From a virus, in IMG/VR virus record IMGVR_UViG_3300033145_002388, positions 1-64,000 of that record: a stretch of DNA of 64,000 nt, one strand, 5' to 3'. The position numbers and the translations under genes were made by a program. This document shows positions 8,786 through 46,100 of this stretch, one piece after another. Under the pieces are notes generated by a model. The model worked only from the letters and a program-made list of their open reading frames with translations. It had not been told where the DNA came from and searched no databases. Each line of letters opens with the position of its first letter. Position 1 is the first letter of the stretch.

Positions 8786-9038
8786 AACTACAGATCTTAA
8801 TCTTGCTACGTCCTTGACAGTAGTTGGAGTTCAAATTAAGGAAGTTACCTATGAAGATTCTCAACGAGTTTGTTTTCATTTTGAATTTACTCAAGAATTA
8901 AAAAAATTAGTTAGTGATTTTCGTTTAGACAAATTAATGCTTCCAGCTCAAAGTCTTTTAATTAAATATCGTCAGCTTAAGGCAATAGTTAAGGAAATTA
9001 AAAAAGAAGAAATGAATTTTAATCATTCTCGGAAATAA
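8766..9038 (+). CDS. DUF5659-like small protein
   Basis: YKTTDLNLATSL..RVCFHF pattern recognised from memory. Confidence 0.55.
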   Translation: MTYMDYKTTDLNLATSLTVVGVQIKEVTYEDSQRVCFHFEFTQELKKLVSDFRLDKLMLPAQSLLIKYRQLKAIVKEIKKEEMNFNHSRK

Positions 9039-9045
9039 TTTCCGA
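9029..9045. repeat. 17-bp palindrome copy 1 (TCGGAAATAATTTCCGA)
   Basis: Perfect 8-1-8 inverted repeat spanning the stop codon of 8766..9038. Confidence 0.85.
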
Positions 9046-9061
9046 ATTTTAAAATTAAAAT

Positions 9062-25261: not shown

Positions 25262-25560
25262 TTACTCAATTAAAGGAGGTAAAAAAAGAAGAGATTAAAA
25301 AACCATCGGTAGTAATTCCCCCTTTAGATTCAGAGAAAAAAGAAAAATCAAACTGTTATCAAGATTATCCTCATATAAAAACATTAGGAAGATTTAGTAA
25401 ATTTATTATTATTAGTTGTTCTTTATCTATATTTTTTTTAGCAGGGACAATTTTTATTTCAAATTTAAATACTGCTTTAAGTTTTAAAATAATTTCGGTA
25501 ATCACTTTATTTTTATTTGTATTTGATCTTTTACATTCTTATAAATTCTTTTTTAAATAA
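25258..25560 (+). CDS. two-TM membrane protein
   Basis: Two hydrophobic helices in C-terminal half. Confidence 0.65.
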   Translation: MITQLKEVKKEEIKKPSVVIPPLDSEKKEKSNCYQDYPHIKTLGRFSKFIIISCSLSIFFLAGTIFISNLNTALSFKIISVITLFLFVFDLLHSYKFFFK

Positions 25561-25561
25561 T

Positions 25562-27184
25562 ATGAATAGATTGAAAAAAAAAGATACTGCCATTTTTAAA
25601 TGGTTAGACGATACTGGTATTTTAACTGATAGGGGAATGCCATTTGAATTTAAAGATCATGCTTTTATTAGGGACTTATTTAGTAATTTCAACAAAAAAA
25701 TTGTAGTTAAAAAATGTTCTCAGATTGGTGTTTCATTAGCATTACTTTGTAAGATTCTTTATTTATCTGATGTAATGGCAAAAAGAACTTCAACTCTTTA
25801 TACTTTACCAACTGATGATGATGTTAAAGATTTTGTTAGAACTAAATTTGATCCGATTGTTTTAGGTTCTAATCTTAGTAGATTTGCTGAAGGTGTTAGA
25901 AAAGAAGATAAAGTTTATTCTATTCAATTAAAAAAGATTGCTGATTCATTCTTTTATTTTAGAGGTTCAAGGTCAATGTCTAGAGCTTTAAGTGTTTCAA
26001 TTGATATCTGGATAGGAGACGAATGGGATTATCAGGAACAGGGAATTAAAGAAATGTATACCGAAAGATTAAAAGGTTCGGATTCTTTAAGAATAAATTG
26101 GATGGTAGGTAATCCTACAATTCCTAATTATGGAATAGCAAAAGAGTTTGAAGATTCAACTCAGAATTATTGGTATGTTACTTGTCCTATTTGCAAGCAT
26201 GTTCAACGTTTGGTTTGGCCAGACTCAATTGATAAGGAAAGAAAAACATTTGTATGTCGTAGCTGTAATCGTCCACTTTCAGATGATGATAGAAGAAAAG
26301 GATTTTGGAAACCCGTTTATCCCGATAGAGAAATGGTAGGTTATTCTTTTAATCGTTTAATGGCTCCATGGTTTTCTGCACAAGATATTTTAGATGATTT
26401 TCAAAATAAAAAGAAGGAAAATTTTTATAGATTTGTTTTGGGTGAAGCTTATGAAGGAAGTGGGATTGATGTTAAGTCTAAATTTAAAACCTTTTTGACT
26501 GATTCTAAATTAAAAGAAGGAAAACGGATTATGGGTATAGACCAAGGAGATAAATTTTTTGTGACTAGCGGGATTGCCGGAAAGTCATTTAGGATTATAG
26601 ATTATAATGCTGAAACTGAATTGCCTGCTGATATTAATGATATGATTTCGACATTAAAACCTGATTTAATTGTAATGGATGCGCTTCCAAATAAACATTT
26701 AGGGAGGATTTTTCAAAAGCAATATAGTAAAACTAAATTCCTTTTGGCTAATGAAAGAGATAGATCTCTAAAAGTTTCTGAACCAATAATAGTTGATTAT
26801 AAAACTGGAATTGTTAGCGCAGACAGGACTATGATTTTAGATGATATGTTTGAAACTTTAGAGAAAGGAATTTTAAAAATAAATAAAAGCGTTTCTCATC
26901 AAGATCTTTTTAAAAAGCATCTTGGAAATATAATACCAGAGGAAAAAGAAGTTAATGGGAGTTTTAAAAGAAGATATAAGAAAATAGGTGAGGATCATTA
27001 TGCATTTGCTTTATCATTTTTTACTATTGGTGCATCACTTTTAATGCCAATTAAAATTGAAAAAAAGGAAATTAAAAAAGAGGAAGAAAAGAAAGTAAAA
27101 ACTTTTATGGAAGATCCCGATTTCATAAAAGCATTAAGAAGAAACAAAGATTCTGAATCGTGGGATTTAATTAAAGAGATTTAA
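25562..27184 (+). CDS. terL: terminase large subunit, GpA-like
   Basis: VVKKCSQIGVS (GpA-type P-loop), IWIGDEWD, GNPT, CPIC/CRSC Zn ribbon, MGIDQG, DHYAFA; start ATG 25562. Confidence 0.85.
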   Translation: MNRLKKKDTAIFKWLDDTGILTDRGMPFEFKDHAFIRDLFSNFNKKIVVKKCSQIGVSLALLCKILYLSDVMAKRTSTLYTLPTDDDVKDFVRTKFDPIVLGSNLSRFAEGVRKEDKVYSIQLKKIADSFFYFRGSRSMSRALSVSIDIWIGDEWDYQEQGIKEMYTERLKGSDSLRINWMVGNPTIPNYGIAKEFEDSTQNYWYVTCPICKHVQRLVWPDSIDKERKTFVCRSCNRPLSDDDRRKGFWKPVYPDREMVGYSFNRLMAPWFSAQDILDDFQNKKKENFYRFVLGEAYEGSGIDVKSKFKTFLTDSKLKEGKRIMGIDQGDKFFVTSGIAGKSFRIIDYNAETELPADINDMISTLKPDLIVMDALPNKHLGRIFQKQYSKTKFLLANERDRSLKVSEPIIVDYKTGIVSADRTMILDDMFETLEKGILKINKSVSHQDLFKKHLGNIIPEEKEVNGSFKRRYKKIGEDHYAFALSFFTIGASLLMPIKIEKKEIKKEEEKKVKTFMEDPDFIKALRRNKDSESWDLIKEI

Positions 27185-27188
27185 ATTT

Positions 27189-30100
27189 ATGGAGATTAAA
27201 GATTTCTCAAGTCAAATTAGTGCAGCTCATGAAGTTCATAATAATTTTTTGACTGCAACTGAAAAAAATATTTCTTATTTTTTTTGGGGTAAAGATCAGG
27301 AAATTATTTCTTATAATCAGGGAAGATATGCATATGGAGATTTTATTAGTTCTATGGAATCAGTTACTCCTTCTGCATTTAATTCTTGTTTAATTCCTTT
27401 ACAAGTAATGTTTCAAGAAATGGGAAATACGATGATATCTGTTAAGGTTGATCCAGTTGGCGCAATACGAAAAATTAAAGGAAGTGAAGAGTTTGCGAAT
27501 ATGCTTTCAAAAAAACTTTCTGATCTCTTTAAAAATTTTTCTTCATTGGGACTTTCTTCATTATTTGAAATGATAAATCATTCTTACTCGGTTTTTTATT
27601 TAGATCCGATATTGAAAAGATTTTATTCTTTATCAGCTTCAGATTTTATTCCTGGGAATCCGGAGATAGCCAATATTCAAGATCAGCCTTTTTTAATTCG
27701 TTTAACTTTTCCATCCAAGGCTGATCTATTAAAAGGAATTGCTTCTCCAGCTTCAGATCCCAGAGTTAACAGTAAAGTTTATTCTGATATTCAAAAATTA
27801 GAAGATTGTACTTCAATTAGAATTCAAGATCTATGGAGTAAAGATTTAAATTCTAGAATTTTAACTGTTCCAACTGGAGAAGTTTTATTTAAAGATCAGT
27901 TTCCCGAACCTTTTATTTATCCTTTTTTTAAAGTCAATGAATCTTTAAGTCAATCTCAGTTTTATGCTTTGCCTTTAATGAGTAAAGCCATTCCTTTAAT
28001 GGAAAAATATAAAAAGATAACCTTGTCAATTGATCATGCTTCTCATGCTCAAGCTAGAGCTTTGTTAGTCTATGACAAGGAAGCACAGATAGATATCAAT
28101 AGACTTAAATCTGAGCTTCAAGAAGGAGATAAAAATATTATTGTGGGTAAAAGTGAAATAGGAGATATTAGTTATAAACAACCAGCACAGCTTCCTGAGT
28201 ATGTTTTAATCCATCAACAAAATTTACTTAATCAAATTTTACAATTATTTGGAACTGGTTCAATTGCAAGGGTTGGATCAGTTCGTGAGAAAGGTGCAGT
28301 AGAAGCTATGATTAGAGCATCACTTCGTCAATTTGTTTTTTATTCAAATCGAATTAAAGATGCGTTAGAAAACTTAGCTGATTATTATTTAAAATATATA
28401 CAGACTCATCGATTACAATTTATAAAAGAATTTGATTCACTTTCATCTTCTGTTTTAAGAGAAGGAACTTTTAAATCTACTATAGAATTACTTCCTTCTT
28501 CTTCTTCCAGGACTATGATGGAACAAACATTTATTTTAAGGAAAAGAAAAGAAGGCCTGATTTCTAGAAAACAATCATTAAAAGAATTAGGTTATCCCAA
28601 TCCAAATAGAATTAGAGATGAAATAGAAACTGAGATGCTTGAGCAAAGAGACTTAGCAGAAAAATTAAAACAACAACCTTTAAGTCTTAATCAAAAGATT
28701 TCTCAAACTCTTTCATCAGTTTTGGATTATACTCCTGATATTATTTTATCTGGTTCAGACAAAGCGGTTGTTCAAGTCAAAGAAAAAGATGTTGAAAAAA
28801 CTAGATTTCTTTTATCTGATTTGGAAGAGAGAATTTATATAGATGGAACTAGATCTGAAAGTGCTCCAAATATTATAGAGTCTGAACCAAAACCGGAAAT
28901 AATTTCCGAACCTAAAAAAGAAAAGGAAATTGAAAAGCCAGAACAAAAAGAAGAAGTAAAAAAAGAAAGTTCAATTGTAAAAAAATCTTCGCAGGCTCCA
29001 GAAGTTTCTAAATTTAAACAGATTTTAGAAAAACTTATTGAATTATCTAAGATGGGAATTAAAAAGGAATCGGTTGGAAAGTTTATTCAAAAATATCCTG
29101 GACTTTATTTAGTAGATCCCCATGCTCCAGATATTTATTCTGGAAAAAAATTAATGATTATCAAGTCTCGTTTATTTGATATTATAGATAAACCTCAAAT
29201 ATTACTTGGTTCTAAATATGCTTATGGAATTTTAATTCCTAGAATAGTATTTAAGATTGGGCCTAAGCGATTTAAAGAAACTGAAAAGTATCATTTAATT
29301 TCTGATGAACAAAGAAAAAAATGGTGGGATGAAAAGACTTTATATGGATACTTATTTGAGTTTCACAAATTTGAAGAACCAGTTGAATGGGAAAGGAAAC
29401 CTGGTATTAAAAATTTTGTAAAAGCTCCTATTCCTTTACGAACAGAACATACTGGAGTTCCTTATACTGGAGATTTAAAACCAGTTTCTTTAAGTCCTTT
29501 TAAGCTTCCTCCTCCAGCTAAACCAGAAAAGAAAGCTTTTCAACCTTATGAAATTTTTTCTCCTGCTAGATTAAAAGAAATTATTCCTGCTGGAACTTAT
29601 AATGTTTCAGAAAAAATAGATGGAATAAGAACTTTTTGTTGGAAAGATAATGAAACTATAAAGTTTTTTACTGATACGGGAAATGAAATTAATGCACAAA
29701 AATTAATTTTGGTAGCCGATTCAATTCGTAATTTATTCAAAACTCAAAGTGTTTTATTAGATGGTGAACTTTCTTTAAAAGGAGTTAAACATGAAAATGT
29801 TACAGGTTTTATTCATAAAAAATCTCCTGTTTCAAATGAAGAAAAAAAAGCTTTAGAGTTTGTGGTCTGGGATATTCTTTATCTTAATGGAAAATCTTTA
29901 GCTGATAAACCTTTTATAGATAGATATAGATTACTTAATTTAAAAATTAAACCCGGACAGACAAAAGGAAAAATTCGTAGAGTAAAAACTACTAATGCTT
30001 CTCGAGATCAGTTAGCTAAAGCTAGTAAATTAGTAACTTCTAATGAAGGAGTAGTTATTAGAGATATTGATGCTGCTTATTGGGCAACTCATTCTATGTA

Positions 30101-31526
30101 TAAATGTGCTCATGGTGATACTTATATCTTTACAGATCGTGGAATGGTAAGAGCAAAGAATATAAAGGCTGATGATAAAATTTTAAATGGTCAAGGAAAA
30201 TTTGTGGGAATTAAAAACATAATGAAAAGAAAAGTAACTTCATTAGATAAAATAATGGAACTAAAAACTTTTGGAACTTTCCCTGTTAAATTTACTTCTG
30301 ATCATTTAATTAAATCAGGCAAAAAATGGATTGAATTGGATAAACTTAGGTTTAAAAGGGGGGCTTTAAGAGAAAATTATGTTAGAAAAGCTAATGACTT
30401 TTTAAGTCTTCCTATTTATAAGCGATTAAAAGGAAAAATTAAAAGTATTAAATTAAGCAGAGTTCCAAAGTATGAAAAGGAAATAAAACTTTCAAAAGAT
30501 TTTTGGTGGCTAGTTGGATTAATTTTAGCAGAGGGAAGTTGGAATAAGTCTGTATTTATATCTAACAAAAATTTATCTCTTTTAAAGAAAGCTCAACAGA
30601 TAGCGATCCAGACCCTGGGAATAGAAGAAGGAAAAATTATTAAGATGAAGAATGATTGTTATGTTTTAACTATATTTGATATGGGATTTGCTAACTGGCT
30701 TGCTCAAAATTTCTCACAAGGAAAAAGAAATGGTTGGCATATAGGACATACTAAAATTCTCCCCCAGTTTATAGATTATTTAACTAAAGAGGAATTTCAA
30801 TCTTTATTTGATGGATGGTGGATAGGAGATAAAGGATGTTCTATTGATAATCCATTAATTATGAAATTCTATTTATTAGGAAGAAGCCATGGAATGCCTT
30901 TAAGTATAAGCTTTTATGATTCTAAATATAAGAACAAGTCTTTCATTTATTGGAAAATTAGAATTCTAGATAAAATGTATAAGAAAAATTGGGGACGAAT
31001 TAGATCTATTGTTACTTATAATAAGCATTCAGAATTTCTTTATGACTTTGAATTAGAGGGTGAATGTCCAGAAATTGCTTCTGCTATAATAGTTCATAAT
31101 TGCAAGAAAACAGCTGATTTAGATGTTAAGGTTATAGCTGTGGAAAAAACTAAAAATAATCTTCCTATTTTTCATTGTGTTTTGAGAGATGGAACTTATA
31201 TGGGACAAACTTATGCACAAGGAGAAGTAAAGGCCAAGCCAGGTGACACCATTAGAGTTATGGTTGATCACTTTACTTTAAGACCAGATGGAGCTTTGGG
31301 TTGGTTTGCGCCTCGTCCTAAAGATATAAAAGGAAAACTTGGGGCTACAACTTCTTTAAAACAAAAGGGAATTTCTGGACCTGATACTTTAGCATTTGTT
31401 AAGGAACATTATCTTTCTCATGGTGGCACTGAGGCGACCTGGAAAGAATGGTTGCCTAAACATGCTGCTTGGAAGGTCAAAGAAAATAAAAGATTAATTG
31501 CTAATGTTAAAAAAGTTTATGGCTAA
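27189..31526 (+). CDS. fusion protein: portal-like N-terminus + ASCH/PUA-like domain + ATP-dependent DNA ligase (intein-containing)
   Basis: Directly follows terL; portal-like first ~500 aa ending LISRKQSLKELGYPNP; ligase motifs EKIDG (K809), LLDGEL, FVVWDIL, EGVVIR, YK|CKK; portal call is positional and motif-level. Confidence 0.8.
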   Translation: MEIKDFSSQISAAHEVHNNFLTATEKNISYFFWGKDQEIISYNQGRYAYGDFISSMESVTPSAFNSCLIPLQVMFQEMGNTMISVKVDPVGAIRKIKGSEEFANMLSKKLSDLFKNFSSLGLSSLFEMINHSYSVFYLDPILKRFYSLSASDFIPGNPEIANIQDQPFLIRLTFPSKADLLKGIASPASDPRVNSKVYSDIQKLEDCTSIRIQDLWSKDLNSRILTVPTGEVLFKDQFPEPFIYPFFKVNESLSQSQFYALPLMSKAIPLMEKYKKITLSIDHASHAQARALLVYDKEAQIDINRLKSELQEGDKNIIVGKSEIGDISYKQPAQLPEYVLIHQQNLLNQILQLFGTGSIARVGSVREKGAVEAMIRASLRQFVFYSNRIKDALENLADYYLKYIQTHRLQFIKEFDSLSSSVLREGTFKSTIELLPSSSSRTMMEQTFILRKRKEGLISRKQSLKELGYPNPNRIRDEIETEMLEQRDLAEKLKQQPLSLNQKISQTLSSVLDYTPDIILSGSDKAVVQVKEKDVEKTRFLLSDLEERIYIDGTRSESAPNIIESEPKPEIISEPKKEKEIEKPEQKEEVKKESSIVKKSSQAPEVSKFKQILEKLIELSKMGIKKESVGKFIQKYPGLYLVDPHAPDIYSGKKLMIIKSRLFDIIDKPQILLGSKYAYGILIPRIVFKIGPKRFKETEKYHLISDEQRKKWWDEKTLYGYLFEFHKFEEPVEWERKPGIKNFVKAPIPLRTEHTGVPYTGDLKPVSLSPFKLPPPAKPEKKAFQPYEIFSPARLKEIIPAGTYNVSEKIDGIRTFCWKDNETIKFFTDTGNEINAQKLILVADSIRNLFKTQSVLLDGELSLKGVKHENVTGFIHKKSPVSNEEKKALEFVVWDILYLNGKSLADKPFIDRYRLLNLKIKPGQTKGKIRRVKTTNASRDQLAKASKLVTSNEGVVIRDIDAAYWATHSMYKCAHGDTYIFTDRGMVRAKNIKADDKILNGQGKFVGIKNIMKRKVTSLDKIMELKTFGTFPVKFTSDHLIKSGKKWIELDKLRFKRGALRENYVRKANDFLSLPIYKRLKGKIKSIKLSRVPKYEKEIKLSKDFWWLVGLILAEGSWNKSVFISNKNLSLLKKAQQIAIQTLGIEEGKIIKMKNDCYVLTIFDMGFANWLAQNFSQGKRNGWHIGHTKILPQFIDYLTKEEFQSLFDGWWIGDKGCSIDNPLIMKFYLLGRSHGMPLSISFYDSKYKNKSFIYWKIRILDKMYKKNWGRIRSIVTYNKHSEFLYDFELEGECPEIASAIIVHNCKKTADLDVKVIAVEKTKNNLPIFHCVLRDGTYMGQTYAQGEVKAKPGDTIRVMVDHFTLRPDGALGWFAPRPKDIKGKLGATTSLKQKGISGPDTLAFVKEHYLSHGGTEATWKEWLPKHAAWKVKENKRLIANVKKVYG
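28893..28909. repeat. palindrome copy 3 (CCGGAAATAATTTCCGA)
   Basis: In the linker of the fusion gene, read as PEIISE. Confidence 0.85.
30105..31100 (+). mobile_element. intein (332 aa) with LAGLIDADG-type homing endonuclease
   Basis: N-terminal CAHGDTYIFTDRG, block B FTSDH, LVGLILAEGS, FDGWWIGD, YDFELE..IIVHN followed by Cys. Confidence 0.92.
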
Positions 31527-32193
31527 TTATACTAAATTTTATATCAAAGGAGAACGAGATGGAAAACCAACTCGTATCTTCGAATCCAATCTTAATAAAG
31601 CTATTAAAGCTGCTAGAAAAATTGGAATGAAACCAACCTCTAAAGATGCTTATGGCTATGATGCAAAAAAAAAGAAATGGGTTCCTCTGTTAAAGGCTTC
31701 AGATCCTCGTAGAGCAACTGCTAAATCTTTTGCTATAAAGGATTATTTTGATAAGATAGCAAATCCTCGTAGCGTAACTGCTAAATCTTTATTGAAAAAA
31801 ACTCCAGTCTTATTAAAGAAACAATATGAAAAAAAAGATTTAATTAAAAGTAGAGGAAAAAAAACTTCTAAGTATTTGATGCCAATTGTTAAATTAATGG
31901 GTGAAAAAATTAAAACGGCTAAGTCAGAGACTGAAGCTAATCAAGCACGTAAAGCATTATTAAAAAGATTTTCTAAAGATTTGCCATCTACAATAATGGG
32001 AAGGAAAAATTATAATACTGCGGTTAAGAATATTGATAATTACTTAAAGAAAGGAAATTATGTAGGAGCCTCTAATTATATGGTAGGACAATTGTTTAAA
32101 TTAGAAAATCAATTAAGGGGAACCGGAAGTTATAAATATGTGGCAGACAAACTTGGTGATTGGTATGGAACTCATTTAAAATTTGATGAATAA
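31519..32193 (+). CDS. basic hypothetical protein in head module
   Basis: Lys-rich ORF; internal 20-aa-period repeat (DPRRATAKSF/NPRSVTAKSL). Confidence 0.7.
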   Translation: MANYTKFYIKGERDGKPTRIFESNLNKAIKAARKIGMKPTSKDAYGYDAKKKKWVPLLKASDPRRATAKSFAIKDYFDKIANPRSVTAKSLLKKTPVLLKKQYEKKDLIKSRGKKTSKYLMPIVKLMGEKIKTAKSETEANQARKALLKRFSKDLPSTIMGRKNYNTAVKNIDNYLKKGNYVGASNYMVGQLFKLENQLRGTGSYKYVADKLGDWYGTHLKFDE

Positions 32194-32194
32194 T

Positions 32195-32509
32195 ATGAAT
32201 AAAAAAATTTTTCTCCTCACTTCTGTAGTGAGAAGGTTAGCAAATTTAAAAGGAAATAGAGATAAGATTTTTGTAGTGGGAGGATTGGTTACTCAGGGAA
32301 GATCTAGTCATGATATTGATATCTGTATTAAAGATCAAAAAGATATTCCAATTGTTAAAGATATTCTTGGTCCTTATCATAAAGATGTACATTTTTCAAT
32401 TCTCAAAGGTAATCGGCCCAGTTCTAAAATTTATCTTACAATTGATAAAAAAAATTTAGAATTGGGATCTAAAGGAATGTATAATGAAAATAGAAACAAT
32501 AAAACCTAA
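32195..32509 (+). CDS. minimal Pol-beta-superfamily nucleotidyltransferase
   Basis: IFVVGGLVTQGRSSHDIDICI (hG[GS]..DxD motif) and VHF strand. Confidence 0.75.
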   Translation: MNKKIFLLTSVVRRLANLKGNRDKIFVVGGLVTQGRSSHDIDICIKDQKDIPIVKDILGPYHKDVHFSILKGNRPSSKIYLTIDKKNLELGSKGMYNENRNNKT

Positions 32510-33401
32510 AAGTGGAACTCATTTTAAAACTTATAAAGGAACAAAAAGAATACCAACTAAAGCAGAGTTTTTGAGACGAGCTTTAAAGAAAGCTCACGGA
32601 CCTTTAGATGTCCATGAAGAATGGATTGAGTTTATTCCTGGAAAATTTACTGTTCAATTACATGGATGGTTTGATGAGGGAAGTTATGGAAAGGGAAAAG
32701 AAGCCTTGACAAAAATTCAGTCAATTGTTAAGATGGCATTGAAGAATCATGAAGATCCAATTATTCATTTAACTAAAGGAAAGTTTCATTATGATATTAG
32801 AATTTTAAAAAAGGGATCCTTAACTTGGTTTGGTTTTACAACATTTAGGTTGCCGTGGACTGGAACTCTTGAAGATAAAGTGATGGGAACCGTTAAAGGC
32901 TATCAGTCCTTAGTTAAAGGATCTAAAGCTCTTAATAAATTTTTAAGAGAGAAAGCTGAAATTGCTTTGACTAAAGAAGGAACCGCTGAAAGAAGAGATC
33001 GTCCTAAATGGCTTAGAATTAAAGCAGAATATTGGAAACCTCCTGGGATTGGAACCCCCAGTGGACAACCGGGAATAATGATTGCATTAGAATCTTTACA
33101 ACCTTGTATAGTTCACAGAAGAGAATTAGATTTTTTAGATATAACTTTTATAGGAAAATATTTTAATGGAAGATATTTTGATAGATTAGTAGAAAGAAAA
33201 ATAGCTAAAAAATTTATTCTTGGATTTTATTTATGGCGAGCAAAGAAAGCTTTTGATATTTCTAAAATGAAAAATATTAGTATTGGAAAACAAAAGCATG
33301 AACCAATTGAAGTTAGATTTCAAGATAATTATTTAAAGATTCAATCTCCTTTAAAGCCTTCATGGAAATTTAAACGCGGGGGGAAAATCTTAACAACATA
33401 A
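32484..33401 (+). CDS. LigD 3'-phosphoesterase (PE)-like protein
   Basis: KFTVQLH...FHYDIRI resembles PE FVVQxH..LHYDFRL; GKYFNGRY resembles PE G.KL.GRW. Confidence 0.6.
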   Translation: MKIETIKPKSGTHFKTYKGTKRIPTKAEFLRRALKKAHGPLDVHEEWIEFIPGKFTVQLHGWFDEGSYGKGKEALTKIQSIVKMALKNHEDPIIHLTKGKFHYDIRILKKGSLTWFGFTTFRLPWTGTLEDKVMGTVKGYQSLVKGSKALNKFLREKAEIALTKEGTAERRDRPKWLRIKAEYWKPPGIGTPSGQPGIMIALESLQPCIVHRRELDFLDITFIGKYFNGRYFDRLVERKIAKKFILGFYLWRAKKAFDISKMKNISIGKQKHEPIEVRFQDNYLKIQSPLKPSWKFKRGGKILTT

Positions 33402-33422: not shown

Positions 33423-33671
33423 ATGGCTAAAATTACTTTGGTTTGTCCTAAATGCGGAGCGAAGGTTAACGTTGAACCTGAGAAAGCAAAAGGACTTAAA
33501 TGTGCTAAATGTGGGGTTGCATTATTGACTCCCGAAAAAGCTGCGGTTTATGCTAAAGCATATGCTGCTGCAAAAAAAAGAAAAAAAAGAAGAACTGCGG
33601 CTGGTAGTTTAATTAAGAAAACTTTGCCAGCTAACTATGGTTATGGTGGAGAAAAAGAAGAATCAAAATAA
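33423..33671 (+). CDS. zinc-ribbon protein with basic tail
   Basis: CPKCG..CAKCG; AKKRKKRR. Confidence 0.7.
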   Translation: MAKITLVCPKCGAKVNVEPEKAKGLKCAKCGVALLTPEKAAVYAKAYAAAKKRKKRRTAAGSLIKKTLPANYGYGGEKEESK

Positions 33672-34512: not shown

Positions 34513-35502
34513 ATGTCCTTAATAGCTGAACTTAATTCTGCGACTTTAAAGTATTATTCTCCGGTAGTCGTTGATCAGATCTTTAAATATTCTCCTTTAC
34601 TCTATCGCATTTTTAAAATTGCGAAAGAAGGTAATTGGGGGATGGCTCAGACAACTAGTGGTGGACGAAAAATTGCTGAACCCCTTGAATATCAAGAAGC
34701 TGCGCAAGCCAGTAATTCTCATGGTTCTTATGATTCAAGTGATACTTGGGCTGCTGATGATCAAGATGTATTGACTCTAGCTGAATACAGTTGGAAGCAA
34801 TATCATTCAACCATCAAAATTCCAAATCTCACTGTTTCAGAGAATGCTGGTAAAGCTAGAATTTTTGATATTGCTGCAATCAAGTTGAAGAATGCTGCTA
34901 AAACTTTGAGAAAAGATTTGGCAACTGATCTTTTTGGAGATAATACTGGTGAAAGTGGAAAAAATATTTTAGGCTTACAAGCACTAGTCGCTGCAACAGG
35001 TACTGTTGGTGGAATTGATAAAAGTAGTTATTCTTGGTGGCAGGGAAAGGTAAATACAACTGGCGGAATTCTTGACTGGTCGATCTTAAATGATCTCTAT
35101 GTTGGGACAAAACGCTATGGTGATGGAGTTCCTCTTTCTATTATTGTATGCTCAGATGGAGTTATGCAAAAATATGAAGATACTTATTCCAAAGTTGTGT
35201 CTGCTACTAATTCAGGAGTTAGATTAACCCTAGGTAGTAAAGTTTTAGATGGTGGTTTTCGCGCTTTTTCTTTTAAAGGTATTCCAATCGTAAGTGATCC
35301 ATTCTGTGGTTCTGGGCTTTTGTTCGGATTAACAGAACAATTCTTGCATGCTAGAATTTTAAAACAATTCGGAACCCAAGGTTGGAAATCAATTGAAGAT
35401 CAAGGCAAAGATTATCTTCAAGCAACTTATAAAGGTTATTTGGCCTTTACTTCAAGTTGTGCTAGAAAGCAGTCAATGGCTAGTGGCTTGACAGAAGCAT
35501 AG
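34513..35502 (+). CDS. major capsid protein (HK97-fold)
   Basis: 329 aa after scaffold; VVDQIFKYSPLL, GGRKI.EPLEY, AEYSWKQ, ILGLQALV, VGGID..SWWQ, FKGIPIVSDP; followed by terminator. Confidence 0.85.
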   Translation: MSLIAELNSATLKYYSPVVVDQIFKYSPLLYRIFKIAKEGNWGMAQTTSGGRKIAEPLEYQEAAQASNSHGSYDSSDTWAADDQDVLTLAEYSWKQYHSTIKIPNLTVSENAGKARIFDIAAIKLKNAAKTLRKDLATDLFGDNTGESGKNILGLQALVAATGTVGGIDKSSYSWWQGKVNTTGGILDWSILNDLYVGTKRYGDGVPLSIIVCSDGVMQKYEDTYSKVVSATNSGVRLTLGSKVLDGGFRAFSFKGIPIVSDPFCGSGLLFGLTEQFLHARILKQFGTQGWKSIEDQGKDYLQATYKGYLAFTSSCARKQSMASGLTEA

Positions 35503-36512: not shown

Positions 36513-37180
36513 GAGGTTCATATGAAATTGTTCTTTATATAGACGAAGATAAATTTTATATAAAGAGATGGATTAAATGTTTTCATAATATTCGATATTT
36601 AAGTATTAAAGAAAGGATTAAATATATTAGATCTTGGGGGACTCCATCAATTAGTATTCTATTTAAGAATGCAGATTTAAATAGATTTAGTTGGATAATA
36701 AGAAAGTATAAATTTTATCCTAGTTATGTTAGAATTTATTTTGGGGTTACTTTAGCAGATTTTATAACAGATAAATTATTTAGTCCTCGAACCAAAGCAA
36801 TTTTATTTATTCAAGCTCCAGTAAAATTTGCTAGTTCAAATCAGGATAGTCTAATTAAAGCTTCTCATTTTTTTTCTTGTATAATGTTTCCATTATTTAG
36901 AAGAAATTGGAGAAGTGCTAAATCTAAATATCCCGAGCTTGACGCAATTTATAATGGTGGTAAGATAGATAATGATAATTGTTTTGAAGAAGTAGGAAAG
37001 AAATTAGGATTATCTTGTTGTTATTTTCAATCTGATTATAAAAAATTAATTCCAAAAAAACCATATTGTTTTGCAATTTGTAGAAGTGAATTAAAAAATT
37101 TAAAGTTAAATCTAGATGGTACTATAACACCAACTAAAAATAAAAGAGTTTTACTAGATAATTTTTATGACGTTATTTAA
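36509..37180 (+). CDS. hypothetical protein
   Basis: 223-aa ORF overlapping neighbours. Confidence 0.6.
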   Translation: MRGSYEIVLYIDEDKFYIKRWIKCFHNIRYLSIKERIKYIRSWGTPSISILFKNADLNRFSWIIRKYKFYPSYVRIYFGVTLADFITDKLFSPRTKAILFIQAPVKFASSNQDSLIKASHFFSCIMFPLFRRNWRSAKSKYPELDAIYNGGKIDNDNCFEEVGKKLGLSCCYFQSDYKKLIPKKPYCFAICRSELKNLKLNLDGTITPTKNKRVLLDNFYDVI

Positions 37181-40100
37181 GTTGTTTAAAGAACAAAACT
37201 TGAGTCTACCTTCAGTAGAAAGAAGGAAACAGCTATACTCAAGATATAAGCTAGGCACAGATTATAAAGGATCTTTTGAACAGAATACTTTACTTTCTAA
37301 AGCTATTAAAAAAGATCCAAGAGAATTTAATATTTTTGTTAATGCTTTAAAGTTTCCTTTAGCTCCAACTATAATTAAATCATCTCCTGTTAAGTCTAAA
37401 GTTAAATCTGTAGCAAAACTAGAACCTGTAAAGATTTCTAAATCCTTAAAGAAAGAATCATTTGAATATGATCGTTTGACTCCTGGTAAAACCGTAGGAG
37501 ATTGGCTTAAAGCAAAGAAAATAAAATTTGAGGACTTTCAAAAACTTAATCCCGCTTATAAAACCCAGGATTTTAAAGTTGAGAGTCCTTTTAAAGTTAA
37601 GATTCCTAAATTAGATTCTGTTTTAATTAAAGAATTTCCAAAAGTAAAAGAAATTCTTGATAAAAAATCAGGAGAAATTAAAGATCCTGCTGATATTCAG
37701 AAGATTTTAAGACAATCAATATCCAATTTATTAATAGGTGGCATTAAAGCATTGCCAGAAATTATTGTTAAGGGAAAAAATTTACTTCCAGCTTATACTA
37801 AAAATATTTCTGAGGGTATTAAACAAACTAAAATATCTGTTGATAAAAAAAATTTAGCTACTGATCTTGGTCAAAAAGAAAAAGCTTATGCTGCTAATTG
37901 GGATCCTGTTAAAATATTAGACACAACAGCGAAAACTGTTATTTCTTTGTCAGTTATGAAGAAAGGTTTCCGACCGATTTCCAGTGATTTAATTTCATTA
38001 ATTAAAAAATCACAAAAATTAAAATTAAAGGAAAAGCAAGAAAAAGAAAGAAAATTAGTAATTCCTTCCGTTGAAGATTTTTTAGCTGGGGAAAAAATAG
38101 ATTTATCTTCAGAAGAAAAAAAGATTATTACTAAACCAAAAGAAGAAAATGAAAGTCCAGAATATACTACTGCTAGATTAAAAAATATTATTTCTAAATT
38201 AGATTCTATTAAAAAAGATATTCAATTACAACAATCAAATTTAAAAGCCGAAGATAGTTCCATTATTGGCCTTATTAACAAGGAGGGAAAATTTTTACCT
38301 TGGGAAACTTTAGAAAAAGATACAGGATTGGCAAAAAATCTTCAATCTGAAATAGAAGCAATGAGTAAAAAAATTGGTCCTGCTACTAATAGAATGCAAG
38401 AGAATACTAATGAATCTATTAAGTGGCAAAATATTCTTTTTAAAAATTTAGATAAATATTCTGATGTTATATTTAATTTAATTTCAGATCCAGAAGTTAT
38501 AAAGGATCCAACAATTTTAACAAAGGTTCAGACATGGTTTCCAAATCGTGAAAGTTTTTTATTGGGAGTAACTAAATCTCCCACTGATGTTTTGGTTTCT
38601 ACGCCTGAAGTTAAGAAATTACAAAAAGAAATGGAGAGTCTTTTAACACCAGAGATGAAAGAAATTATTGATAATGCTTCTAAATTAGATCCTGAAAATG
38701 ATGAACAAGCTGATAAATTTTGGTTAGGATTAAGTTTGGATCAACAAAAATCCTATCAGAGATTAATGACTCTGAATCGTTTAATTGGGGAAAAAGATGA
38801 TGCAACCAAACTTCAAAAAACCTGGGCTTTATTAGAAGATCCTTATTTTCAAAAAACAATTTTAGAAAGTGCTAAATATTTATCTGAAGATCAAAAGAAA
38901 ATTATCCAGCCTGTTATAGAAATTGCTAAGTTAAATGCAGAAAGAACTATCTTATGGCCAAAAGTAGATAATGAAATGAAATCTCAAACAGAAGAAATAA
39001 AAAATAAATATACTGAGTATCAAAAATTAGTTGAAGGAATTAATCAAAGAATAGTAGCTTTGGGTGATCCTAAAAAACAGGGCACACTTGCTCATTGGTT
39101 AGTTGATTACGGTGATGCTATTCATGAGTATCAAAAAAGTTTATTAAAAGCTGAACTTAAGTCAGAAAAAAAAGTTGCTGAATTTCAGGATGCATATATT
39201 GAAGCTAGAAGTTTTAAATCTGTATCTAGGAATTTCATGAATGCAATTACTTCTTTCTTGAAGAATCATAGTTGGGAAATAAAAGCTGAAGATGAAAAAG
39301 GTTTCTTTTTAAAACTTAGAAAAAGTCAAGAAGAAATTTTAGCCAAGGATAAATTAAAAATAATGAGTCAAGTTGTTTTTCCTACTGGTTTTAAAAATTA
39401 TTTTATAGAAGGAGGCTATAAATATGATCTTCCTATAGCCATTACTCCAATTGGATATGAAGTCACAAAGAATGCTTTTTCTGGATTACAATGGATCTGG
39501 GATAGAACCTTGCCAGCTGCTGAGGTTGCTGTTACTGCTTTATCTCAAATAGGTTCAACTTTTTATCAAACAGTTTTAGAAGAAACGGGGGATTTGTGGG
39601 GTATGGAAAGAAAAAAAGTAGAAGAGTTAACTACAATTGGAGAATTTCCTTTTAAAGAAAAAAATTTAGTAAGTAAATTATGGAATTTAAATTGTTTTAA
39701 TTTTTTTAATTTATATGATGCTGCCAATTTAACTGATTTACAAAAGATTGCACCTGGTAAACGATTTGAAATTCAAAATCTTCCTAAATGGATAGATTTA
39801 AAAAAGGGCGGTTATCTTCCAACTCTTTATTCAAATTATAGACATCCTCGTTCTTATCAAGAAATTATGATAAAAAGCAGAATGAAAGCAGTTGAGGTTT
39901 TACCTTCTGAATTTAAAATTATTCAAGAAGAATTTTTAAGCTTAAATAATCTGAACAAGGATAGTGTTCTTAGTATTGGCGATAGGATTTTAATTCCAAC
40001 TCAGGGTTATATTGCGCCTAGAAATTTAATTAAACCTAATGAAAGAACAAAAATGGAGCAAACATCAGATGGTAGATTAGCTTTGCTTGCAATAGATTTT

Positions 40101-43100
40101 ATAGGATGGGGCTTTCTTGACCCTACTTCAATTTTTTGGACTAGAATAGGATCCTTGTCTAAATCAATTTTTAAAAATATTTGTCCTCAACTTTATAATC
40201 AATTAAAGACTCGTAAAGATTTATATAAATTTGCAAATGAATATTCTAGGGCTAGTGATTTAGCAGAGGATTTAATGAGTTTTGCTTCTTTAGATGCCAT
40301 ACCTGGGGGCAAATTTAAAGAAATGTTTCCCTCTTTGATTAATAGTCGTAAAGCTTTTATGAGCTTAAAAGTTTTAGATAATTTAGATCCAAAAGTTTTA
40401 GCTAAGATTGAGAAGTATGCGCAAGAAGGAGAATTATGGAGAAGTGGATATTTTTCAAAGTTGTTTATTGACAATGTAAAAACTAAAGTTGGGAAGGACA
40501 AACTTAAAACATTTCAAGATTCTTTAAGGGCTTTAATGTTAGAAGGAAAGATTCCTGCTGCTTCTGATAATTTAGTTTGGGAAGTTTTAAATCAATTTGG
40601 TGGTAACGGATTTGATTTAATTAAACAGATTGCAAATAATGGTCCGAAAGCTTTAGAGATTGGTTTGAATAAAGTTGTAAAAAATTATCATTCAGCAAGG
40701 TTAAGAGAATATTTACTTAAGAAAAATTTAGATAAAACTTTATATGGACTTTCTCCGTTAGAAAGAAATCAGGTTTTAAATTTATCTCAGAAGACTGAAG
40801 CTCAAATTACTAAAGAATTAAATTTAATGAGAGAACTTGGGAAGGGAAAAACATTTAAAGAAAGATTTCTTATTCGGCCAGAATTTACCCCCAAATCTAT
40901 AAATAAAATTGAGCAAGCTGTTAAGCAAACTAAAATAAATTTACTCAATGCAGAAAAGATTTTAAAGGAAAGTAAGGTTACTATTAATTTACCTGATAGC
41001 TATAAGATTTTATATAATCTTAAGAAAGAAGGGAAAAATTATTTTGATATAGTTAATAAGCAATTTGTAGTAGAACAGTTAGGAAAGAGAGGGGTACCGG
41101 GCTTAATTAAGGATTGGTATAGTCAAGTTGGTACAAAGTTAGTAACTTATCTTGATAATATTACAGGTTATTTTTCTGAAAGTACTTTAATGGCTAGAAA
41201 AAATTTAACTTATTCTGAAATAGTTAATGGTATTAAACAAGGGCATGGTGGCTTAGGTTTACGATTATTAGATACAGTTAGATTTAAAGATAAGGATATG
41301 ACAGTTAGAGCTTTAATGAAAGAATTAGAAAAAGTAGCAAAGGGCCAAAAGTCAAAAGCTACATTTCTTTCTACTAAATGGCCTATTAAAATTCCATTAC
41401 AAAAGAAACAATCTTCTTCTTTACTTGATGCAATTTATAAAAGTATAAAGTTTGATTCATTTAAAAATAAAGATTGGGTTGGAATGAATTCTTATAGTTT
41501 TAAAGAATTATTAGGTAAGGTTCAAAAGTTAGATAAAAATTTTGTGCCTGTTTCAAAAACTAAAGATGTTTATAATACTTTACCTTTGCAATGGTTTAAT
41601 GCTAATAAAAATACTCAGGGCTATGCTGTATTTGGCGGACTTCCATCTCGTCATGGAATGTCTAAAATAATTAAAGTAAAATCTAAAGAAAAATTAATTA
41701 TTCAAGATCCAAAAGATTTTAAAGCTTATTTTGAAGAAGCAGTAAATCTTTATTTTTTACAAAAATATTCTCCATTAGAATATAAGCGTTATCAAGATGA
41801 TTTAGTTCAGATGGTAAAAAGACAAACTGATAAACAATTAAAAGCTTGGTTAACCCCTCAAGATAGAATTGCTTTACTTATTTTTGAAAATGAGAAAAAG
41901 GGAATTGCTTCTCTACCCAATTCTATTATAGATTTATTTGAATCTTTAACAGGTAGCGCTGATGATATTAAAAGATCTATAACTTTATTTTTAAATAAAA
42001 GAATGGGATTAGAAAAAGAACAAATCCTTGCTTCAAAAAAAGCTGAATTAATTAAATCTTTTAAAGCTCATGGAATTAAAGAACCAGAAAGAGAATGGTT
42101 ACTTTATAGAAGACGTTGGAATTTTGATTTAGTTATTAATCCTCAAGTTGAAGAGTTTGCAACAATTCATAATTTACTTTCAAAGTTTCCTATTTTAAGT
42201 TTCAAAAAAACTTCTAAATTAATTCCTGCTAAATATGTTACTAGATTAGAAAAAAATAGTTATCCATTTAGAAGCAGATATCCTAGTGAAATTGATAGAT
42301 TGTTTTATGAAATTCAACAGGGGGGTCGAAAAAGATTCTCGGAAATTATTTCCGAAAAAAAATCTTTACCTCAGAAAATAGAAGAGATAAAGAATATCAA
42401 AGCTGAAACCTTAAATATTCAAGCTAATAATTTTTTATTTTGTCCTTCTGCTTCCAAACTTCATACTGATAGAGATATTAGATTAGCTGTACAAAAATAT
42501 GGAAGTCGTGGGAATTTTATTATTCCAGGTGATTATAAAAATGCTGAGTATGCTAGAAAGAAATTTGAAACTTATTTGCCACAAGGAAGAGCTAAAGTAC
42601 TAAAAAAAGATTTTCAAAAAGGTAGTCAAACTCAGTTTGTTTTAAATCAACCTCAATTTATAGATGATCTTAAAAATGTAAATCAATTAGATGAAATGAC
42701 TTTGGGAGGAGTAATTCCTGAAAAAAAGTTAGCTGAATTTTGGGCTCAAATTCCAGAAGATCTTCCTAGCAGAAAAATTTTTAAAACTGGAAAATATTAT
42801 CCCTCAGAAACTATTGGTGCTGGGGTTAGGGCTAGTAAATTAAAAAAACTTGAAGACCAATTTGGAAAAAAAATTGCTAAACAAAAAATGGCAGATATTG
42901 AAAAAACAATGGCTGAACAAAAAAAATATTGGCTTCCTCAAAAAAAGTACAGTCTTGGTTATGATTATGATGCAATAGATGATATTCAAAAGAATATAAA
43001 TTTTGTAATGAAAGATGTTAATGATCCAATAGCTAAAGAATTTAAAAGTTGGATTAGATACGAAGAATTAGAAGAGTTAGAAAAAAATCATAAAGGAATG

Positions 43101-46100
43101 GTTATAGAAATATTTGAAATACTAAGTGCAAAAAAACGAGTTCTTAATTCCATTTTTTCTTCTAAAGAATTTTATGTACAAAAAAATAATATAGTCTTTA
43201 CTTCATTAAAAGGAGTACCGCTTGATACCACAATCGCAATCGGTTTTACTAAGGGCAAAGTTTTAGGAAAACCTAGAGCTTTAATGGCTAACCAGGTTAA
43301 AGCTTATGTAAAAGATATTGCTTATAAGAATAATTTATCTAAAGCTGAATGGCCAAAAGATATGAGTTTCAATAAAGTTTCTGATGATATTAAGAAAGCT
43401 TTTTATTTGAATAAATACAATACTAGAGAGCAATTTAGAAAAGGATTTAAAGAAGTTATTAAACCAGTTAAAAAAGGAAAAACAGACAAAGCATTAAATA
43501 AATTAATGAGAGATTTAGATTTAGAAAAAAAAGGAATTGTTTATTCTAAATTAGATAGATATTTTACAGATCAAGTTAAAAATTTATATACTATAGAAGA
43601 GAGAGGAAGTTTTCTTGGAACAATTAAAACTGAATTAGAATTAGCTAAGAAAAATCTTAACTTTTTAAATTTAGGTTATAAGAAATTAATTTCTGCTAAA
43701 AAATCTGGAAAGAAATATATCTATTTAAAAAAACAAAATGTTTGGGTTAAGGGTGAAAAACCTGGCCCGATTATGAAAGATTATGTTAAAGATGAAAGTA
43801 TACTTTGGAAACCAACTCAAACTTTAATTCCCGAAGGTTTTCAATCGAGGGGAGAAATTACTTCTAAGATGTTAATGTCTGAAAATATTTTAACTAAATC
43901 TAGAGGCACTGAAAAAATTAGTATTGATAATGCAATTAAAAGTATAGCAATTGATTTACAAAAACAAAGACAATATGTTCCTAAAGTAGAAAGTCTGGAA
44001 AGAGTCTTTGGATTATTTAATTTTAAATCTGAATATATTAAAAATTTGGATGATTTTATAGATGCTTTGTGGGATATTTCACATAAGAATCCTTCATCTA
44101 AAGCAACTGGTTTAGTTGGGGAATGGAGAACTAACTTTATAATTAATTCAAGAGGACCAAATGTTTTAAGACCTAGTCTTATAGATTTAAAGAAACATAA
44201 ATTAAAAATAGCTGAGATTAAAGCTTATCCAATTCCAAAACTTACAAAATTTATTGAGTCTCAACAAATAGCAAATGTTAAATTTCCGATTTCTATGAGT
44301 AAAGAAGCTGCATCTCTTAAGACTCTTAGACATTTTAATACTAATATTATAGTTGCAGTAGATTTAAAAATTCCTATAGAAATTTCAAGTAAATATAAAA
44401 CTATTTGGAAATCAAATTCTAGAAACTTTTTTCCTATTGGCTCTAAGTTCGCTACTAAAGAAGAAATTAATTTAACTCGAAAAGTTAGAGATGCTTTTTT
44501 TAATAAAAAGAAGGTAGTTTTTGTAGGAGAAAATGCTGATTTAGTTAGATTAAGAGTCTTGTCTTTATTTCCTCCAGAGGAATTTGCTACATATAAAGGA
44601 TTGTTTACTTTAAAAAGAATTCCAGCAATGAGAACTAAAACTTATCCTGGTTATACGTGGGAATTTAGAAAAGGAAAGAGACCAATTTTAATGAATGAAA
44701 CAGAAAAGAAATTGTTAACTGAAATTCTTCCAAAAAAAGATTGGGATGATTTAGTTAGTTACCTTAAAAGTCCTGGCATTCCTAGAACAGTTGAAGAGAT
44801 TCCTGCCGAACAAACAAAGAGATTGGTTGCAGATTTCTTATCTGATCTAGAAAACTCTATTAAAATTTCTCCTGATTATAATAAGTTTTGGATTAGTAAA
44901 ACCAGGAAAGCAATTGGCAGTAAAGTTAAACATGTTAAGGTTGAATTACCCACAATGTTATCTTTTTCTGATATTGAAAATCTAGGTTTACTTAAAAATG
45001 CTGGAGTAAATTTATATATTGAAAGAGTTTCAGGAATGAGAGAAGCTGCTCTAAAACAATTAAGACATGAAGGAATAAATCCTAAATTAATTAGCTCAGC
45101 TAAAGCAAAACAAATTCATTATTCTTATGTTAAAGGAAAAAAGGGAGCTGGTCAAATTTACGAAAAAATTCAAGGTTTAAAATCAAATGTTTTTGATGGA
45201 ATAAAAAAAGATCTTAATATTTTTTTTAAGGATTTTAAAAAAGTTATTCCTGTTTCTGCTATTGATCGTGGAACTTTAAGAAAAAGCACATATGAATGGT
45301 TAGATAATGCTTATGCATTAAAAGGAAAAAAGGATTTAATAACTCAATGGAAAGGAACTTCAAAAATTCTTACTAGAGAATTTCGAGATAATTTAGAAAA
45401 TGTCTTATTAAAAGAATTTGGAACTTTAAATAATAAGGTTGCTCAAAATATCTTAGCTAGAAAGATGTCTAAGTTTGATGATTATCTTAAATTAGCAGAA
45501 GAAATGAAATTAGGTTTTGGGGGTCAGAAAAGATTATCTTTTTACTCTATCGGAAATAAACTTAAAGCTTTAATCAATTCAGGATTTGAATGGGTTGCAG
45601 AAAAAAAAGTTGGTACTCCTTTAACTATGGGGGAAAAAGGAATGATTTTAACCCTACAAGCATTGGATAAAACTATAAAAACTACTGATTTAATGATATC
45701 ACTTCCACTTAGAACCTTAAGAACTATGTGGATATGGGGAGTTTTATTTTTAAGACCTGGTTGGCATTTAAATAATATGTTGGGAGATAGTTTAAGGGGT
45801 ACCATGGCCTCACATGACCTTAAATATTTTATAGATTCATCTAGACAATTTAGTTTATTAACAACATCTTATCTTAAATTTTTAGGAAGAGATATTCGTA
45901 GTTTATTTTATCCTCTTTATCGAAATTTTATTCCAACCAAATTAAGAAAGTTTAATTTATTTAAAGATCCTTTAAAGGTTAGTAGGAATGAAATGAGGAA
46001 AGTTTTAAAGCAAACTGTTGCTCCTAATACTGTTAAGAATAAGAGAAGATTAAAACTTTTGTTAAAGAATTATGATCTTACTTTTAATCCTAAAACCATT

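Follow-up and report, generated by a model that had tools for sequence, protein, structure and literature searches.

In a 64,000-nucleotide stretch of viral DNA (positions 1 to 64,000 of IMG/VR record IMGVR_UViG_3300033145_002388; hereafter, the window), the gene that follows the large terminase gene terL encodes a predicted portal protein joined, in one chain of 1445 amino acids (aa), to a putative ATP-dependent DNA ligase. An initial annotation, made from the sequence without database searches, had described this gene as a single open reading frame (ORF) directly after terL, and the coordinates of the ORF and of terL bear this out. Downstream lie genes for a minimal Pol-beta-type nucleotidyltransferase (NTase) and for a divergent relative of the LigD 3'-phosphoesterase (PE), and related viruses inherit or lose the ligase, PE and NTase as a set. 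In the interpretation favored here, to which a probability of about 0.5 is attached, the portal protein would be built as a carrier for DNA end-processing enzymes, forming a healing-and-sealing station at the packaging vertex. The parent record comprises 72,131 bases (the 72-kb record below), is classed as linear, and has a CheckV completeness estimate of 73%. The parts of the chain and its two candidate partners are listed below, with the predicted local distance difference test (pLDDT) given for modeled domains.

27189..31526, + strand: single 1445-aa ORF, starting four bases after terL; predicted portal, linker, mid domain and intein-split ATP-dependent DNA ligase
27189..28673, + strand: predicted portal fold, aa 1-495, from Foldseek of the predicted model
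28674..28853, + strand: small alpha/beta domain after the crown, aa 496-555; strands plus a helix at 517-554, pLDDT ~78-83; kept in relatives
28854..29006, + strand: disordered linker rich in Lys, Glu and Pro (K/E/P), aa 556-606; pLDDT 29-39
29007..29453, + strand: mid domain, predicted beta-barrel with helices, aa 607-755; pLDDT 81-88
29454..29558, + strand: Pro/Lys-rich connector, aa 756-790; invariant GDLKP...KPEKKAF, in ligase-bearing forms only
29559..30104, + strand: putative ligase nucleotidyltransferase domain, aa 791-972; motifs I EKIDG (K809), III LLDGEL, IIIa FVVWDIL, IV EGVVIR and the first half of V (MYK)
30105..31100, + strand: predicted class-1 intein, aa 973-1304, with a LAGLIDADG homing-endonuclease core; it separates the two lysines of ligase motif V
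31101..31526, + strand: putative C-terminal part of the ligase, aa 1305-1445; remainder of motif V (CKK), OB-like domain, candidate motif VI WFAPRPKD, and tail
32183..32509, + strand: putative minimal Pol-beta-type NTase-fold protein, 108-aa ORF; likely start ATG at 32195, giving 104 aa
32484..33401, + strand: divergent putative member of the LigD 3'-phosphoesterase superfamily, 305 aa; N- and C-terminal extensions and two large insertions

The portal assignment of the N-terminal part is based on its predicted fold. Residues 1-790 were modeled from a 14-row alignment of relatives (mean pLDDT 72.7), and a Foldseek search of this model against the PDB returned 223 matches at E<=0.001. The best 50 of these 223 matches were all phage portal or connector entries, led by 9vyf_R (E 5.1e-15), and the closest folds were portals of the podovirus type (KHP30, Pan3, GP4, SU10, LME-1, Pa223, Sf6, and P22). 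In the model, aa 1-495 adopt the clip, stem, wing and crown of a portal, and these fold matches uphold the earlier reading of the N-terminus as portal-like. At the sequence level, the protein of the window has no portal match in Pfam or PHROG, one relative (P0007) matches SU10_portal at E 7.8e-4 with 18.4 bits (below the cut-off of 30), and no other portal family match was found elsewhere in the 72-kb record. The K/E/P linker that was described initially is likewise present, with aa 556-606 rich in these residues and modeled at a pLDDT below 50; its length varies from 20 to 108 aa across 14 relatives.

The ligase is recognized most directly by Pfam DNA_ligase_A_M (PF01068), which matches aa 806-967 at E 5.9e-19 (69 bits, against a cut-off of 26.2); this is the one match to the family in the whole 72-kb record (73.1 bits in the genome search). 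The best profile relatives in the PDB are archaeal DNA ligases (2cfm, E 5.2e-5), compared with E 0.48 for the LigD ligase domain 1vs0; by sequence, the domain resembles archaeal and eukaryal ligases more closely than it does that of LigD. Motifs I, III, IIIa, IV and V, all listed in the initial annotation, are legible, the last as MYK joined to CKK. Across 11 sequences, the K, D and G of motif I, the G and E of III, the W-D-x-L-Y of IIIa, the E-G...R of IV, and the K-x-K of V are invariant.

Motif V had been proposed to become whole only after splicing, and both the signature of the insert and an insert-free orthologue agree with this. The 332-aa insert bears the marks of an intein (C973, TSDH, LVGLILAEG, and HN1304, followed by C1305). 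The orthologue in the relative L002 (1126 aa, 67% identical) is without exactly aa 973-1304 and reads ..AMYK-MKKTADL.., the hyphen marking the position of the insert; because this intein-free homologue omits exactly those residues, the intein boundaries are proven. Pfam Intein_splicing matches the protein of the window at E 0.0047 with 17.2 bits, below its cut-off of 35.8. When known phages in INPHARED were searched by tblastn, the 1445-aa protein matched through the intein alone, in seven Lactococcus phage records (NrdD genes, E 3e-6). The C-terminal part of ~140 aa, including WFAPRPKD, is kept in all ligase-bearing relatives; Pfam DNA_ligase_A_C has no match to it, not even in the intein-free L002 protein, and the assignment of an OB domain and motif VI to aa 1305-1445 is a reading of the sequence. 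The chain is predicted to carry a complete ATP-dependent DNA ligase, whole once the predicted splicing removes the insert.

The joining of portal and ligase recurs well beyond the window. Searched exhaustively by HMMER with aa 1-560, a set of 1.84 billion cluster representatives yielded 12 relatives, of which seven carry PF01068, four end after the mid domain, and one is a 499-aa piece; a stand-alone portal of ~500-600 aa was not found among the 12. Locus searches in IMG/VR, GTDB genomes and JGI metagenomes, with six-frame ORFs scanned by purpose-built hidden Markov models (HMMs), provided 37 distinct contigs. In nine of them, one ORF encodes portal, mid domain and ligase; 23 are ligase-less, their ORF ending after portal and mid domain, and in five the contig ends within the ORF. 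Chimeric assembly and read-through across two genes were rejected as explanations, since the same uninterrupted ORF recurs in nine distinct contigs from different collections (IMG/VR, JGI metagenomes, and metagenome-assembled genomes (MAGs) of GTDB) and in 7/12 cluster representatives; the chance that the fusion is an artefact is negligible. The gene order around the fusion is also stable: terL, portal-ligase, NTase, PE, scaffold and major capsid protein (MCP) follow one another in relatives down to 27-31% portal identity. The terL gene lies immediately 5' of the portal gene in L002, L004-L006 and L010 as well, and each of the five loci found with the PE protein as query has a portal-ligase gene just upstream (5/5).

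The three enzymes follow the same pattern of presence and absence. Among contigs with at least 3 kb of sequence downstream of the portal gene, the PE gene occurs in 8/8 ligase-bearing contigs and the NTase gene in seven of these eight (the exception being L011), and both are found in 0/13 ligase-less contigs; several of the contigs are near-copies, so these counts overstate independence. A comparison by hhalign of the PE profile with the ORFs in the same slot of the ligase-less contigs L004-L006 detected no relation. A quick maximum-likelihood tree of the portal domain was built from 40 rows, after a coverage filter (under 480 profile positions) had dropped L009, L020, L029, L039, L040, L041, L042 and L043, and after the duplicates L013, L015 and L031 had been removed. 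In this tree, where L022 (0.014 from L023) is labeled ligase-less though its ORF runs off the contig, the ligase label has to change three times, and well-supported branches force at least two of these changes. Two large clades without the ligase (support 100), both of which also lack PE and NTase, branch from among several deep lineages that bear it. Read most simply, the ligase-PE-NTase trio is old in the family and was lost together at least twice. This shared inheritance and loss is the chief reason to think that the three enzymes act together.

An old trio lost as a unit fits the variation seen within the module. In the relative L010 only, a gene for a protein of the metallo-beta-lactamase fold (7854-8687; Lactamase_B_2, E 3.5e-14) stands between NTase and PE, and its product may be another nuclease that processes DNA ends. 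The PE genes of L010 (8693-10588) and L011 (8630-10513) contain an in-frame LAGLIDADG insert of ~320 aa just past the HxDxR motif, a repeated intein invasion that marks the insertion site as conserved and important.

The 305-aa protein is predicted to have the eight-stranded barrel of the LigD PE. Foldseek of its AlphaFold2 model ranked the archaeal LigD-type phosphoesterase 3p43 first (E 0.06, probability 0.93). The motifs FTVQLH and HYDIRI, which had prompted its description as LigD PE-like, are present, and both the barrel and the catalytic residue pattern were found. Six residues (Q58, H60, H102, D104, R106, and H211) are invariant across 16 diverse members of the family, and in the most distant members a 36-aa insertion collapses to leave Q-x-H-x6-H-x-D-x-R, near the canonical H-x5-H. 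In the Korarchaeum enzyme CkoPE, His9, His15 and Asp17 bind manganese and Arg19 and His51 bind phosphate, with Gln7 as a further residue (PMC3082917, which covers the active sites of CkoPE and MbaPE). The six invariant residues stand in the same order as Gln7, His9, His15, Asp17, Arg19 and His51 of CkoPE, the correspondence being drawn by motif order.

Sequence searches with this protein were negative. The match to PF13298 (LigD_N) envisaged at the outset was not found, either for the protein encoded at 32484..33401 or anywhere in the 72-kb record, and Pfam and PHROGs gave no sequence match of any kind. The protein and its profile found no PE among PDB sequences, Foldseek against BFVD returned nothing at E<=0.001, and tblastn against the known phages of INPHARED had no match. 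A profile search collected 51 clusters of the family at 90% identity, none with a precomputed Pfam domain. The protein is filed as a distant relative within the PE superfamily, and not as a member of Pfam LigD_N, because there is no LigD_N profile match; the family would constitute a new branch of the LigD phosphoesterase superfamily, and a deeply divergent one. A search at longer lengths for fused forms returned three proteins, P0068 and P0069 with LAGLIDADG and P0070 without a recorded Pfam domain. A complex prediction for residues 626-1126 of the L002 protein, covering its intein-free mid domain and ligase, with the PE protein (score 0.00, mark 0.32) gave no answer, and nothing is drawn from it. 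In L009, the PE gene is followed immediately by a 118-aa ORF (4952-5308) with a weak match to ParB_N (E 0.005, below the cut-off).

For the NTase, a Pol-beta-type fold has reasonable support. The protein contains VVGGLVTQGRSSHDIDI, and VGG-x9-DID is invariant in five homologues at 34-77% identity, in keeping with the minimal Pol-beta NTase (GG..DID) first proposed. Its PDB profile match is the AbiEii NTase 8an4 (E 0.68), with the motif aligned, and its structural neighbors in the Atlas are Polbeta/NTP_transf_2 clusters at template modeling (TM) scores of 0.61-0.63, on the Atlas's own model (predicted TM score, pTM, 0.65). A Pfam scan of the protein gave no match. At ~100 aa, it is a minimal fold without a nucleic-acid-binding domain. 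The same Atlas structure search also returned a 288-aa Peptidase_S78 (prohead protease) cluster at TM 0.68 and a 762-aa DNA_ligase_A_M cluster at TM 0.52, a hint at NTase-like domains joined to head proteases and to ligases in other proteins.

The mid domain accompanies the portal whether or not a ligase follows, its HMM matching 32/32 distinct contigs with a complete portal ORF. It had been described as ASCH-like. A profile of six mid-domain sequences found in the PDB just 2dp9 and 1wk2 (TTHA0113), at E 0.41 and 0.6 and over nearly the full length; we take TTHA0113 to be an ASCH protein. An Atlas language-model neighbor at 0.93 is a cluster with ASCH on 16% of its members. Pfam ASCH (PF04266) matches 0/6 mid-domain sequences at E<=10 and has no match anywhere in the record at the same threshold. 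In the fold searches of the 790-aa model, both lists were filled by portal matches, so that the mid domain was barely probed. Its ASCH/PUA-like identity is kept only as a lead, and the predicted barrel is viewed as one of nucleic-acid-binding type.

The orientation of portals suggests where these modules would be found. The C-terminal crown of solved portals points into the capsid. Because of this, and because C-terminal GFP fusions to T4 gp20 sit in the prohead interior (PMC10893049), the linker, mid domain and ligase are expected to lie inside the head. Up to twelve ligase modules would hang there around the inner mouth of the DNA channel. The mid domain would hold DNA, the PE would first clean blocked 3' ends (a 3'-phosphate or a ribonucleotide), and the ligase, pre-charged with AMP, would then seal nicks in the phage chromosome during packaging or storage. 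The NTase would act as a third, undefined helper, and the outcome would be the delivery of only an intact, ejectable genome. In T4, ligase deficiency impairs the building of heads full of DNA; nicks disturb the packaging of short substrates, and T4 ligase is needed as nicked DNA packages poorly (PMC10893049). The ends of packaged T4 DNA lie ~9 nm apart, and one of them is believed to be tethered at the portal's top (PMC10893049).

The interpretation put forward in the initial annotation is partly supported by these results. The portal fold, a fusion that is not an artefact, the PE barrel, the synteny, and the joint inheritance or loss of ligase, PE and NTase all speak for it. Of the three roles it proposed (sealing nicks during packaging, circularizing the genome on entry, and repairing cuts made by host defense nucleases), circularization on entry is the problematic one, since a portal-joined ligase should stay in the capsid unless something cuts it off. 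A more ambitious version, put forward tentatively and at rather low odds, treats the capsid as a working DNA-repair compartment. Twelve portal-tethered, pre-adenylated ligases, with the co-inherited PE and NTase recruited to them, would mend chromosome breaks within the head, or would grip and process both genome ends at the crown, and the chromosome would arrive repaired and ready to circularize without host end joining.

Several points weigh against a healing-and-sealing station on the portal. The virion location and enzyme activity of the ligase, PE and NTase, like the splicing of the intein, are inferred from sequence. A sealed capsid has no available ATP, and only pre-adenylated, single-turnover sealing is therefore conceivable there. 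The model of the PE-like protein is of low confidence (mean pLDDT 64.3), and LigD_N matches 0/10 members of its family at E<=10. The counterpart of CkoPE Tyr55 is not conserved, the 16 sequences reading R-R-E/D-L/V/I-D-F after H211; in PE enzymes, however, a mutant of the active-site tyrosine retains diesterase activity (PMC3082917). None of the three longer PE proteins is joined to a protease, ligase or portal, which is weak evidence, and the NTase and ASCH assignments are themselves weak. Few independent events stand behind the co-inheritance, as reconstructed in a quick tree. With the record estimated at 73% complete, a second portal, a protease or Ku could sit in the missing part.

If the cargo did not stay on the portal, the ligase module, with or without PE and NTase, could be cut off in the linker and ejected with the DNA, sealing cohesive ends or mending nuclease cuts before phage gene expression. 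This would suit a terminase of the lambda gpA (cos) type and a linker that is long, disordered and hypervariable. It would also agree with the proposal that portal- or MuF-fused enzyme domains are packaged and injected (PMC5512222), and with the circularization of the mycobacteriophages Omega and Corndog at cos via host LigD (PMC12848934, citing Pitcher 2006). However, a cargo attached covalently to a ring retained in the capsid cannot leave, and no Ku that might hold the ends was found in the 72-kb record (PF02735, no match at E<=1). None of the three Pfam families of prohead protease searched for was found in the record, and there is therefore no evident means of cutting the cargo off the portal. 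The nearest structural relatives are podovirus portals, and phages with portals of that type usually mature without a protease. Delivery of the enzymes into the host is accordingly considered unlikely.

The enzymes might instead work in the cytoplasm on replicating or recombining DNA, joining Okazaki fragments or sealing nicks in concatemers ahead of packaging, with the fusion incidental and providing late co-expression or access to the packaging site from outside. Unassembled portal subunits are present in every infection. The ligase is the only PF01068 protein in the 72-kb record, and T4 ligase is required for encapsidation (PMC10893049). A replication ligase would, however, be expected among early or middle replication genes and not in the head operon, and the fusion is retained across lineages whose portals are just 27-31% identical. 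Moreover, the portals always carry the mid domain, with a ligase or not, which favors a function for this C-terminal extension once the ring is assembled and leaves a purely cytoplasmic function improbable. Repair of RNA is a far more remote prospect. The ligase, PE, NTase and ASCH-like domain would in that case mend host tRNAs or other RNAs cut by anticodon-nuclease defenses, much as T4 Pnkp and Rnl1 heal and seal RNAs cut by anticodon nucleases. ASCH domains are usually predicted to bind RNA, and T4 RNA ligase 1 doubles as a tail-fiber attachment protein. PE enzymes, for their part, resect 3' ribonucleotides (PMC3082917). Nevertheless, the ligase matches DNA_ligase_A_M and archaeal DNA ligases and not RNA ligase families, the ASCH assignment is unproven, there is no 5'-kinase, and both the head-operon location and the attachment to the portal point to DNA.

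The portal-borne station favored here has partial counterparts in known systems. The closest in architecture are the fusions described by Iyer, Burroughs, Anand, de Souza and Aravind in 2017, in which the portal of a terminase-portal phage bears an enzymatic domain at its capsid-facing C-terminus; such portal- and MuF-fused domains were proposed to be built into the head (PMC5512222). The portal fusions treated in that paper carry PBECR RNase and 2H phosphoesterase domains aimed at the host, whereas the cargo here is predicted to seal DNA and comes with two co-inherited, separately encoded partners, the PE and the NTase. In the main text of PMC5512222, the word 'ligase' occurs three times, at least once concerning ATP-grasp RNA ligases, and 'LigD' and 'ASCH' occur zero times; its supplementary architecture lists may hold a portal-ligase fusion. 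None was found in the literature searched. The general idea of portal-fused enzymes packaged in the head has been in print since 2017.

In terms of chemistry, the nearest comparison is with the LigD/Ku system that bacteria use for non-homologous end joining (NHEJ) and with stand-alone archaeal PE enzymes (3n9b, 3p43, 3p4h; PMC3082917). There, as here, an ATP-dependent ligase is paired with a PE of the same barrel and the same Gln / His / His-x-Asp-x-Arg / His pattern, and the predicted logic of healing a 3' end before sealing it would be shared. In contrast to LigD-based NHEJ, no Ku was found in this phage, and its PE stands apart as a 305-aa protein that has large insertions and no LigD_N match. 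Its ligase belongs to a different subtype and is fused to a portal, a virion protein. Scans of five proteins of the region with Pfam revealed no polymerase domain of the archaeo-eukaryotic primase (AEP) type, the rest of the record not having been searched for it, and an NTase of ~100 aa and Pol-beta type is present instead. The NHEJ analogy is therefore limited. The mycobacteriophages Omega and Corndog reportedly encode Ku, for which this phage has no match. They resemble it in that phage genome ends are joined by an ATP-dependent ligase, but they borrow the LigD of the host, whereas this phage encodes both a ligase and a PE of its own (PMC12848934, citing Pitcher 2006). The T4 gp20-GFP fusions prove by experiment that a folded domain at the portal C-terminus is tolerated inside the prohead, and T4 likewise illustrates that unsealed nicks hinder head filling (PMC10893049). 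Those fusions are artificial, however, with four to six of the twelve positions filled in the cited assays, and T4 ligase is a free cytoplasmic enzyme (PMC10893049).

Portals are usually regarded as purely mechanical components, and the ligases of phages as enzymes free in the cytoplasm. In a natural, conserved chain of portal and ligase, DNA sealing would be wired to the packaging vertex, the first such case found. It would offer a handle on how phages cope with nicked or damaged DNA during packaging, on how genome ends are handled at the portal, and on the capacity of portals for enzyme cargo. A ligase that self-assembles as a twelve-fold ring could also interest enzyme engineers.

The fusion lies in a genome segment of ~28% GC with virtually all genes on the + strand. 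Its neighbors in the head module are as follows.

25517..27184, + strand: large terminase terL, lambda gpA type; Pfam GpA_ATPase E 7.2e-24, phrog_675 E 1e-84
31498..32193, + strand: basic 231-aa protein between portal-ligase and NTase; true start probably a downstream ATG
33423..33671, + strand: zinc-ribbon protein, 82 aa; weak Zn-ribbon Pfam matches (E 0.002-0.1); kept in L001 and L002
33693..34484, + strand: candidate scaffolding protein, 263 aa, by position only; directly before the MCP in relatives too
34513..35502, + strand: MCP; phrog_9953 'major head protein' E 1.5e-38

The 231-aa protein, which the initial annotation passed over, had no match in Pfam and PHROG scans and is kept at 57% identity in L001 and L002; being very basic, it might be an internal DNA-binding head protein. 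Family searches with the 263-aa scaffold candidate had no match. In four relatives, the MCP match falls into two pieces 0.2-1.6 kb apart (L004 15292-17767, L005 14051-16500, L006 15071-16294, and L010 12420-14530), a pattern that points to intein, intron or homing-endonuclease insertions in the gene for the MCP. The terminase gene is similarly affected in the ligase-less relative L004, where an 836-aa product (7449-9959) contains an intein (Intein_splicing E 9.5e-10) before the ATPase domain; the terminase ORF of L005 is 850 aa long.

After the head and neck genes, positions 37167-50900 of the window are occupied by one ORF of 4577 aa, which may encode a giant ejection or tail protein. At the equivalent position of L009, an ORF runs for 2142 aa or more and off the end of the contig. 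L009, L010 and L011 were binned in MAGs labeled candidate division WOR-3, uncultured archaeon and Candidatus Saccharibacteria; such divergent labels for one virus family suggest binning artefacts, and the host is not given by them. The window also contains a single tRNA gene, for tRNA-Met (CAT), at 1437-1508.

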